Source of the DNA: Escherichia coli
Lineage (GTDB): Bacteria > Pseudomonadota > Gammaproteobacteria > Enterobacterales > Enterobacteriaceae
DNA length: 64,000 nt
Assembly: GCF_044324785.1 (NCBI RefSeq)
Contig: NZ_CP172127.1
Reading direction: 5' to 3' (one strand)
How positions within the stretch are numbered: position 1 is the stretch's first letter; each line of letters begins with the position of its first letter. The notes under the pieces are model-generated. The model saw only the letters and a program-made list of their open reading frames with translations. It searched no databases and was not told where the DNA came from. Shown here in pieces: positions 22,434 to 23,108 of this stretch. Made by a program: the position numbers and the translations under genes.

Positions 22434-22460
22434 CAAAGCCAGCTCATAGGCTGGCTGTTT
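22434..22460. terminator. bidirectional rho-independent terminator between terL and the convergent moron
   Basis: AGCCAGC-TCATA-GGCTGGCT; U-run on both strands (better on the minus strand). Confidence 0.6.
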
Positions 22461-22472
22461 GTGACATGTCAC
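22461..22472. repeat. 12-bp perfect palindrome GTGACATGTCAC (copy 2)
   Basis: Exact; between the moron stop (22477) and the terminator. Confidence 0.9.
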
Positions 22473-22476
22473 GGTG

Positions 22477-22833
22477 TTATTGCTCGCTTAACTTCTGCTT
22501 CAGCAAGTAACCTTCAAGCATCCAGATTTTGTTTACAGCATTCTGCCGGGCAATCTTCCGACCAATTTCTGCATCAAAGTTTTCCGGGCTTGCACAGGCA
22601 CTCTCTCCGGTAACGGTGAAGCCATTCTTCAGTACCAATACGCAGAAAGTCAGGAGGTCTGTAGATTTATGCGCTACCCATGAATCGCCAACGCCCATAT
22701 TGGCAGCACGAATGCCGTCATAAGCAGTAAAGAAATGCTCTTCAAGAATGATGCTTTCGATATATTGAGGCGTAACTCGCGGAGCGGTTTTGCCTTTCTC
22801 AACGATTTCTTTTTCGATTTGCTGGTCGTTCAT
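22477..22833 (-). CDS. hypothetical moron protein (118 aa), convergent to the late operon
   Basis: Clean ORF on the opposite strand to all flanking structural genes; own terminator; no family recognised. Confidence 0.55.
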   Translation of the reverse strand: MNDQQIEKEIVEKGKTAPRVTPQYIESIILEEHFFTAYDGIRAANMGVGDSWVAHKSTDLLTFCVLVLKNGFTVTGESACASPENFDAEIGRKIARQNAVNKIWMLEGYLLKQKLSEQ

Positions 22834-23031
22834 AATCTCACCTTAAAAAAATGCCCGGCGAACCGGGCGAACTGGAAGCAATGAGTTATGCCTTCCGTGG
22901 CTGTACTGGTTTACAGCATGAAGTCATCGCAATGGCGTCGTGCTGTAAAAAGGGCGGTGATAGTCCTTCAAGGGAAACCATCACCGCCAAGCCCCTGGAA
23001 CTTCTGGCATCACGGTCCTTAGGCGTGATTC

Positions 23032-23108
23032 TGGCGTGGCATGCAGGATTCGAACCTGCGACCAACCGCTTAGAAGGCGGTTGCTCTGTCCGACTGAGCT
23101 AATGCCAC
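23032..23108 (-). tRNA. tRNA-Arg (anticodon UCU), phage-encoded
   Basis: 77 nt; hand-folded cloverleaf GTGGCAT-TA-GCTC-AGTCGGACA-GAGC-A-ACCGC-CTTCTAA-GCGGT-TGGTC-GCAGG-TTCGAAT-CCTGC-ATGCCAC-G-CCA; sequence differs from the host argU-type tRNA as I recall it. Confidence 0.85.

Follow-up and report, generated by a model that had tools for sequence, protein, structure and literature searches.

A candidate repressor-controlled accessory slot carrying an Acb4-family gene and a tRNA-Arg(UCU) between the terminase and portal genes of an Escherichia coli prophage

Acb4 of phage SPO1 is a tetrameric 3'3'-cGAMP (cyclic GMP-AMP) sponge which defeats the cyclic oligonucleotide-based antiphage signaling system (CBASS), and the Pfam family PF13876 has been equated with Acb4 (Chang et al., bioRxiv 10.1101/2024.12.30.630793; the equation is also made in a later structural-modelling preprint). 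All eight purified diverse homologues bound 3'3'-cGAMP, and those of phages of Gram-negative hosts additionally bound 3'3'-cAA. The fold is like that of dsRBDs, domains which bind double-stranded RNA, and some homologues have extensions (Chang et al.). The present analysis concerns a 64,000 nucleotide stretch of Escherichia coli contig NZ_CP172127.1 (assembly GCF_044324785.1), referred to as the window, and in particular two genes lying between the terminase and portal genes of a prophage. These are an open reading frame (ORF) of 118 amino acids (aa) and a tRNA gene:

22477-22833, minus strand: 118-aa ORF of the Acb4 family (PF13876, Gp49/Sf6 gp66), ATG start
23032-23108, minus strand: tRNA-Arg(UCU), 77 nt, CCA encoded (ARAGORN, Rfam)

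The homologues listed in Table S3 of Chang et al. include E. coli protein A0A0C5F232, which is one residue away from the window protein, and proteins of phiV10, epsilon15, Sf6 and N4. In E. coli genomes RefSeq annotates the gene pair as "Gp49 family protein" and "tRNA-Arg". The tRNA and the Gp49/Acb4 gene are thus already annotated in RefSeq and GenBank relatives, the Acb4 family was characterized in 2024-25, and the finding is an ordinary one.

The prophage in the window is ~40.7 kb. A 17-bp core, ATTGAGTGGGAATGATT, marks both of its ends, with one copy at 6624-6640, where guaA has its 3' end, and the other at 47371-47387. ZX5, phiV10 and epsilon15 have been described with the same attachment core (PMC9782041). 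Between 20900 and 25500 the identity was 96-98% to the Uetakevirus phages ZX5, phiV10, O157 typing phages 9 and 10 and TL-2011b, and ~80% to epsilon15, Tyrion and a Klebsiella phage. On sequence grounds the prophage is phiV10/epsilon15-like (Uetakevirus) and integrated at guaA.

The two genes probably occupy a standard Uetakevirus accessory slot which forms one repressor-controlled leftward unit, with the tRNA and an Acb4 gene as cargo. The slot lies between the large terminase subunit gene (TerL) and gp3, and with the same flanking signals it was found in all eight relatives examined. The original prediction described an insertion interrupting a single terminase-portal unit, which does not agree with this distribution. 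The order on the minus strand was a TTGAC -35 with the operator TTACC-N5-GGTAA, a leader RNA, the tRNA where present, the region of a first terminator (T1), a conserved hairpin, a second terminator (T2) with a ribosome binding site (RBS), the cargo gene, a palindrome and a final hairpin. The signals in the window, from right to left, are as follows:

23470-23535, plus strand: rightward regulatory module CTACG.TAAATAAATCATATGTGGTTAAATTGGTAATAATTTAATT, near-invariant in relatives, upstream of gp3 and portal
23439-23467, minus strand: candidate sigma-70 promoter, TTGACA (23467-23462), 17-nt spacer, TACCTT (23444-23439), from manual reading
23431-23445, no strand assigned: operator-like inverted repeat TTACCCGAAAGGTAA, one of nine in the prophage
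23181-23349, minus strand: leader RNA core of ~170 nt, from covariation, no Rfam family
23108-23177, minus strand: long hairpin of ~17 bp, CAAC-GAUGAGAGCAUU.../...AGUGCUCUCAGC-GUUG, with a variable apical part, 3' of the core
22944-22988, minus strand: T1, 14-bp stem (22988-22953) and CTTTTTACAG, from the consensus scan, downstream of the tRNA
22910-22949, minus strand: conserved 9-bp hairpin TTTACAGCA...TGCTGTAAA, loop with an invariant CGCCATTGCG
22845-22868, minus strand: T2, GCCCGG-TTCG-CCGGGC (stem 22868-22853) and ATTTTTTT, from the consensus scan, abutting the cargo RBS AAGGTGAG
22461-22472, no strand assigned: palindrome GTGACATGTCAC, 3' boundary of the cargo gene
22437-22456, minus strand: final terminator hairpin AGCCAGC-loop-GCTGGCT and TTGTTTTATC, from the consensus scan, called on the minus strand only

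The cargo was acb4 in the window, phiV10, typing phage 9 and epsilon15. In PAS61 and Tyrion it was a phrog_4846 protein of unknown function, and Tyrion also had a DUF551 gene. The cargo of SPN9TCW was a membrane protein matching phrog_11227 ('protease') and was read as SPFH-like. The cargo of the Klebsiella phage was an orphan. NCBIfam had no family for the 118-aa ORF or for four alternative cargo proteins, a set which did not include the Tyrion DUF551 protein. At least 80% of the cassette was found in 222 E. coli RefSeq genomes. Many more had its tRNA side next to different cargo, or had the Gp49 gene in a different phage context. The tRNA was annotated in typing phage 9, SPN9TCW and RefSeq E. 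coli genomes. In epsilon15 (~2583-2720, locus L002) the tRNA and most of the leader were absent, and the deletion ended in a short repeat, GCATCAAGGGAA, which was seen intact twice in SPN9TCW (L007). Epsilon15 has thus lost the tRNA secondarily by deletion between short repeats. The cassette is best described, from these comparisons, as a genus-wide exchangeable accessory slot and not a private insertion. Copies of the operator lay just upstream of both the small terminase subunit gene (TerS; 20286) and gp3 (23431), which suggests that the terminase and gp3/portal are separately controlled units anyway. The Tyrion slot also contained an int-alpA RNA (L005 2196-2260, minus strand; Rfam RF02996, 44 bits against 35.8) between the DUF551 gene and the palindrome.

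The 118-aa ORF had been described as being of unknown family. It matched Pfam PF13876 (Phage_gp49_66) with an E value of 2.1e-34 over model positions 1-82 of 82, which places it in the Acb4 family. In PHROGs the match was to phrog_322 (E = 1e-62) and only families of 'unknown function' were matched. The sole phmmer match of the sequence among PDB sequences was 9E4W (Acb4), with an E value of 0.006. When a profile of 11 homologues without SPO1 was used 9E4W alone was matched, with an E value of 4e-10. A single-sequence AF2 model of the ORF had a pLDDT of 41, was unusable, and was replaced by a model from the 11-sequence alignment with a pLDDT of 84. The top 13 Foldseek matches of this model in the PDB were all chains of 9E4W (E values of 2.6e-04 to 1.2e-03, prob 1.0, TM 0.5-0.70), and the next match had an E value of 0.07. 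The predicted monomer showed the Acb4 fold of a three-stranded sheet flanked by helices.

The protein has in common with SPO1 Acb4 (9E4W) its small size, the core motif NGF.V.G.S...P.NFD.EIG and the contacts F48, F62 and I66. The two are only ~25% identical, and the window protein differs in having one more helix at its N terminus and, ahead of the first core strand, ~25 residues of variable insert. SPO1 Acb4 is a Bacillus phage protein, whereas the host here is Gram-negative. Overall identity to phiV10 gp03, epsilon15 gp50 and Sf6 gp66 was 71-80%. The phiV10 and epsilon15 genes (Uetakevirus) have the same slot, strand, upstream terminator and RBS, and downstream palindrome as the window gene, whereas Sf6 is a P22-like phage with its gp66 gene in another context.

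The ligand contacts of SPO1 Acb4 were taken from the list of Chang et al. (K36, F48, E49, V56, Y57, F62, N63, I66, T70 and K81). Three of the ten were identical in the window protein (F48/F72, F62/F86 and I66/I90). Two were conservatively changed (V56/C80 and N63/D87) and the rest were replaced (K36/L60, E49/T73, Y57/A81, T70/I94 and K81/M105). The N- and C-terminal thirds were near-identical in the window, phiV10, epsilon15, Sf6 and APEC O1 proteins. Residues ~30-58 (22660-22745) were hypervariable and indel-rich in these proteins, being unrelated and of variable length in those of the window, phiV10, epsilon15 and Sf6. Next to this segment is the position which corresponds to K36, a guanine contact in SPO1 Acb4. 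As judged from sequence, membership of the Acb4 family is secure and the exact ligand is not. By homology the protein should be a cyclic-dinucleotide sponge against CBASS. It would tetramerize and sequester 3'3'-cGAMP, and possibly 3'3'-c-di-AMP as Gram-negative homologues do, and the CBASS effector would then not be triggered.

A protein with the Acb4 fold and another ligand or role, for instance another immune nucleotide or RNA binding, would account for the seven of ten contact residues which differ from SPO1 Acb4, for the hypervariable segment beside the K36-equivalent position and for the dsRBD-like ancestry of a fold with extensions in some homologues (Chang et al.). All eight diverse homologues in that study nevertheless bound 3'3'-cGAMP, and the stacking and hydrophobic residues F48, F62 and I66 are retained. 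This alternative is considered unlikely. For annotation, the label 'Gp49 family protein' carried by hundreds of E. coli prophages can be taken to mean a candidate anti-CBASS sponge, and the TerL-gp3 slot of Uetakevirus is a good hunting ground for further counter-defence genes, for example the phrog_4846 protein and the SPN9TCW cargo.

Control of the slot by a repressor is suggested by the operator sites. The inverted repeat TTACC-N5-GGTAA had nine sites in the window against 0.03 expected. All were within the prophage, in its early, late and immunity regions (12855, 12917, 13629, 15960, 16022, 20286, 23431, 40934 and 41978). The epsilon15 record annotates TTACC-N5-GGTAA as a repressor/lysogeny site. 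By analogy with the C1 operators of P1, such dispersed operators point to direct repressor control of many operons. The -10 of the candidate leftward promoter was inside the right half-site of the operator at 23431-23445, and the TTGAC -35 and its spacing to the operator were invariant in seven relatives. A promoter scan of 22200-23800 called no promoter-like site. No sigma-70 promoter was found by scan or by eye between the terminators (22869-22952) or directly upstream of the tRNA. In the rightward direction the sequences ACCYGAAAGGTAATA and CATATGTGGTT..GGTAATA at 23433/23487 were repeated at 42360/42402 upstream of the tailspike gene, and the repeated promoter module proposed upstream of gp3 is therefore real.

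The cargo gene is enclosed by further conserved signals. T1 and T2 both lie between the tRNA and the ORF and were absent from the original prediction. T2 was kept in the relatives whose alignment rows span it, and it is a rho-independent terminator in the epsilon15 annotation. The cargo RBS AAGGTGAG is strong and is 5 nt before the ATG. The final hairpin is 50 nt past the TerL stop codon and had been described as bidirectional. In the consensus terminator scan the minus strand was called, which upholds that half of the description, and the plus strand tail, GTTTGTGA, failed the T-run rule.

The palindrome noted beside this terminator, GTGACATGTCAC, was present and was one of three exact copies in the window (20196-20207, 22461-22472 and 40004-40015). 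With up to one mismatch there were four matches against 0.18 expected. Each exact copy was at the end of a gene block, one before TerS, one after the cargo gene and one after the ORF at 39651-40007. The one which follows the cargo gene was kept in place in phiV10, epsilon15, typing phage 9, PAS61, Tyrion, SPN9TCW and ZX5, and at the same place the palindrome of the Klebsiella phage was GTGACGTGTCAC. A protein site and a recombination boundary for cargo exchange are both possibilities. A CRP or LexA site was ruled out by the half-site spacing of the consensus sequences.

The following sequence of events is proposed. The slot would be transcribed leftward as a single unit from the sigma-70-type promoter at ~23467-23439. 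The unit would be silent in the lysogen because the -10 of its promoter sits in a repressor operator, and it would be switched on at once after infection or induction. The transcript would carry in order the leader of ~170 nt, the long hairpin, tRNA-Arg(UCU), two terminators with the conserved hairpin between them, the RBS and cargo, and the final terminator with GTGACATGTCAC. Polymerase would have to read through the terminators on the way to the cargo. Such lytic timing would suit both counter-defence and support of translation, and it argues against lysogenic conversion.

Lysogenic conversion was the role first proposed for the ORF. In a classical moron or lysogenic-conversion cassette the ORF, perhaps together with the tRNA, would be expressed from the repressed prophage to the advantage of the lysogen, for example to block CBASS death at superinfection or induction. 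The cassette does have usual moron hallmarks, as it lies opposite the late genes, has its own terminator (22456-22437) and has cargo that varies among the eight relatives. Against this, neither the scan nor manual reading of 22869-22952 gave a promoter-like site directly upstream of the ORF, where a terminator abuts the RBS, and the sole candidate promoter overlaps the repressor operator. The Acb4 family has moreover been characterized as phage immune evasion acting during infection, that is, as a counter-defence family. A moron is accordingly rated as distinctly unlikely, and a unit expressed in the lytic phase is the preferred reading.

The tRNA gene was called by ARAGORN as tRNA-Arg with anticodon tct at position 35. 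It scored 73.3 bits against Rfam RF00005, for which the gathering score is 29. The prediction of a genuine tRNA-Arg(UCU) thus passed the covariance-model check. The identity elements of E. coli tRNA-Arg for ArgRS are A20, C35 and U36. In the phage tRNA the D loop, AGTCGGACA, has A20, the anticodon TCT has C35 and the 3' end is GCCA. Compared with argU of E. coli K-12 the anticodon loop (CUUCUAA), the T arm and the layout of the D arm with A20 were identical. There were 15 differences, which were confined to the stems and the variable loop. The stem changes were compensated, with three acceptor pairs and two anticodon-stem pairs altered on both sides. This is the pattern of a working gene, and by sequence the phage tRNA is a functional relative of argU. 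It differs from the host gene in being carried by a podovirus between terminase and portal. Phage tRNA genes are also found in Stx phages (ileZ-argN-argO). Those of P1 (trnA, trnT and trnI) are likewise in a repressor-controlled operon and beside the same leader RNA as in the window.

The suggestion that the tRNA offsets rare codon use fits the codon counts. Per 1000 codons there were 8.0 AGA in late genes, 7.3 in other phage genes and 1.6 in the host flanks. This corresponded to 53 of 6602 late-gene codons against 11 of 6785 host-flank codons (odds ratio 5.0, p = 4e-8). The enrichment persisted without the tailspike gene (5.6 per 1000, p = 2e-4), and AGG was likewise enriched in phage genes (p = 3e-4). 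AGA was absent from the head genes and present in the tail and ejection genes, with most in the tailspike gene. The tailspike gene (42477-45233, plus strand) had a GC content of 0.40 compared to 0.49 across the prophage, and contained 21 AGA and 10 AGG in 918 codons. The gene was probably acquired recently and is probably the one which uses the phage tRNA most. The observed AGA skew supports codon supplementation as a reasonable hypothesis. Most likely the tRNA would raise the capacity to decode AGA, which is concentrated in the low-GC tailspike gene and the tail and ejection genes.

Phage tRNAs which are resistant to anticodon nucleases have been described. The tRNA here could similarly replace or shield host tRNA-Arg against tRNA-cleaving nucleases of defence systems or toxins, or against its depletion in the course of infection, making the slot a two-gene counter-defence island. 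Its predicted co-transcription with a counter-defence gene in an exchangeable slot would suit this role, as would acceptor and anticodon stems which differ from argU. The anticodon loop is the same as in argU, however, so there is no evident way for it to evade a nuclease which cuts there. A simpler reason for the tRNA is the strong skew of the phage genes to AGA, and the tRNA does not track acb4, being present with other cargo in PAS61 and SPN9TCW and absent beside acb4 in epsilon15. Such a shield is very unlikely, and codon supplementation is retained as the preferred role of the tRNA. It is highly improbable that the ORF is an unexpressed and decaying remnant downstream of the tRNA terminators, as the two consensus terminators ahead of it might suggest, given that it is full length with a strong RBS, that its protein sequence is conserved in many genomes (including the 222 with at least 80% of the cassette), and that the terminator and RBS junction is kept ahead of unrelated cargo genes, which implies selection for expression from that junction.

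Several points weigh against a repressor-controlled unit with a sponge as cargo. The leftward promoter is weak, its -10 TACCTT matching three of six consensus positions, and it was below the threshold of the promoter scan. The operator is assigned to a repressor by the annotation in a GenBank record, and the assignment is to that extent provisional. As two consensus terminators stand between the tRNA and acb4, acb4 is possibly poorly expressed unless there is read-through or antitermination. Epsilon15 is an established phage despite its lack of the tRNA and of most of the leader. Both should therefore be dispensable, and the tRNA should be an aid, not a necessity. Among the contacts replaced in the protein are two specific for guanine (K36 and E49) and three to phosphate (Y57, T70 and K81), and the ligand may differ.

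The 320 nt from the promoter to the tRNA were non-coding and conserved, and contained the leader RNA. A search of Rfam 15 over 22380-23560 at E ≤ 5 gave the tRNA as the sole match and none for the leader, and nothing was found at E ≤ 1 in the corresponding sequence of Tyrion, the Klebsiella phage or SPN9TCW. The leader stretch matched several hundred records of E. coli genomes at 80-90% identity, and no annotation lay beneath it in any record inspected. In the phage collection it was found in 83 records and was unannotated in nearly all. These included P1, P7, D6, SJ46, cdtI, 2H10, mEp390 and Stx2c phages. A 19-mer of the leader, GGTAGCCGGAATGTGCAAG, was present in at least 120 IMG/VR contigs. 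Its position was 71023-71197 in P1 (NC_005856), 1940-2091 in L132 and 2501-2668 in L133. The leader is the most interesting object in the slot, being unannotated, supported by covariation and common to P1, Uetakevirus and lambdoid phages without an annotated N there.

An alignment of 67 leader sequences, all less than 93% identical, gave a consensus of 27 pairs in six helices. Paired cells made up 98.1% compared to 91.6% in shuffles, and none of 500 shuffles reached the observed value. Ten pairs were changed on both sides. The covariation score was 0.219, compared to 0.109 when shuffled and ~0.03 in slid controls. The covariance model, R1, scored 131-144 bits in the window, P1, mEp390, cdtI and a Stx2c phage.

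The long hairpin 3' of the core was present in 84 of 113 distinct loci, as a helix of 16-19 bp around a variable insert of 44-180 nt. There were 40 distinct arm combinations and all were complementary. The last G of the hairpin is position 1 of the tRNA in the window. The hairpin resembles an RNase III substrate. Its 3' arm had a boxA-like UGCUCU(U/C), and four loci (L028, L068, L080 and L117) instead had a perfect boxA, GCTCTTTAACAA, downstream.

The tRNA followed only 14 of 104 distinct cores. Many other phages had a cloverleaf-like RNA of 88-138 nt where the window has the tRNA (Tyrion, L005, and L006, L018, L039, L052, L070, L099, L115 and L129). These RNAs had an acceptor-like stem, GUUGUGGUG/CACCACAAC, a D-arm-like hairpin, a variable middle and a T-arm-like hairpin. 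The T loop of the L052 RNA was the canonical UUCGAUU. ARAGORN called no tRNA in the cloverleaf-like RNAs, and Rfam did not recognize them either.

The sense strand of the leader followed the direction of the flanking genes in every context examined. In cdtI the order was the cI stop codon, a terminator, TTGACA-16-CATAAT and the leader 50 nt further on, with no N gene annotated, and the arrangement in mEp390 was similar. In P1 the leader was part of the C1-controlled ban operon, with trnI on one side and ban on the other. The long hairpin accompanied the core both in this operon and in PL leaders of lambdoid phages for which no N gene is annotated at that place. A search of the literature on P1 ban/trnI transcription found nothing on the leader. 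Two or more sense-strand terminators were found downstream in 21% of loci compared to 1% upstream, and 53% of loci had none within 900 nt. This enrichment downstream of the leader is suggestive, not decisive.

The nearest described counterparts of the leader are the put RNAs of HK022 and the lambda nutL-N leader. Like these, the leader lies 45-85 nt downstream of a repressor-controlled early promoter, and it takes the same place as lambda nutL-N in phages without an N gene annotated there. In Uetakevirus there are likewise terminators downstream, and the long double-stranded stem is reminiscent of the site for RNase III in the N leader. The leader differs from HK022 put, which is ~70 nt with two stem-loops, in having ~170 nt, six helices and an additional 70-nt hairpin. 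Unlike the HK022 put and lambda nutL leaders, the leader in P1 is 2.3 kb from the promoter. Identity with the HK022 put RNA was rejected, as R1 gave no more than 5.3 bits with filters off in the HK022 stretches searched (L135 and L136), which included the nun-PL-cI region. The core and long hairpin may, tentatively, be an undescribed and widespread class of phage cis-acting RNA, serving as a protein-independent processive antiterminator and/or a processing platform. Its role in cis may be read-through and/or processing. A role in antitermination specifically is possible and somewhat doubtful. If so, the leader would let polymerase pass the two terminators ahead of the exchangeable counter-defence cargo. 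It would also release the tRNA which follows it, or elsewhere the tRNA-shaped RNA of 88-138 nt. A leader controlling read-through or processing would help to explain how such phages run their early operons.

The genes flanking the slot, as given in the ORF list, are as follows:

20240-20914 as listed, plus strand: TerS
20911-22386, plus strand: TerL
23536-23742, plus strand: gp3 homologue, 68 aa
23757-25436, plus strand: portal

The true start of TerS is probably near 20321. The coordinates confirmed that the tRNA and the 118-aa ORF are opposite in strand to the late region, both to TerS/TerL (20240-22386, plus strand) and to gp3/portal onward (from 23536, plus strand). Two further ORFs on the plus strand, 22851-23102 (83 aa) and 23146-23409 (87 aa), were antisense over the tRNA and terminators and over the leader RNA, respectively. 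At the 83-aa ORF the annotation of phiV10 (PhiV10p04) and of ZX5 has a hypothetical protein. The two ORFs are probably spurious as genes.

Elsewhere in the prophage a direct repeat of 257 nt with 95% identity was found at 8114-8370 and 41020-41276. It overlapped the 3' parts of two minus strand ORFs (8115-8765 and 41021-41758). In the early region (14579-14731) a 24-nt unit, GAATATACCCAAAAACGGGATGTT, occurred four times, three of them in tandem, and these repeats may be iterons of a replication origin. Rfam matches above the gathering score included a C4 antisense RNA at 41762-41849 (minus strand) beside isrK at 41868-41944 (minus strand). By sequence this pair reads as a P1/P22-like immI-type anti-repressor control region. 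A further match above the gathering score was sRNA-Xcc1 at 8806-8895 (minus strand), near the integrase end of the prophage.

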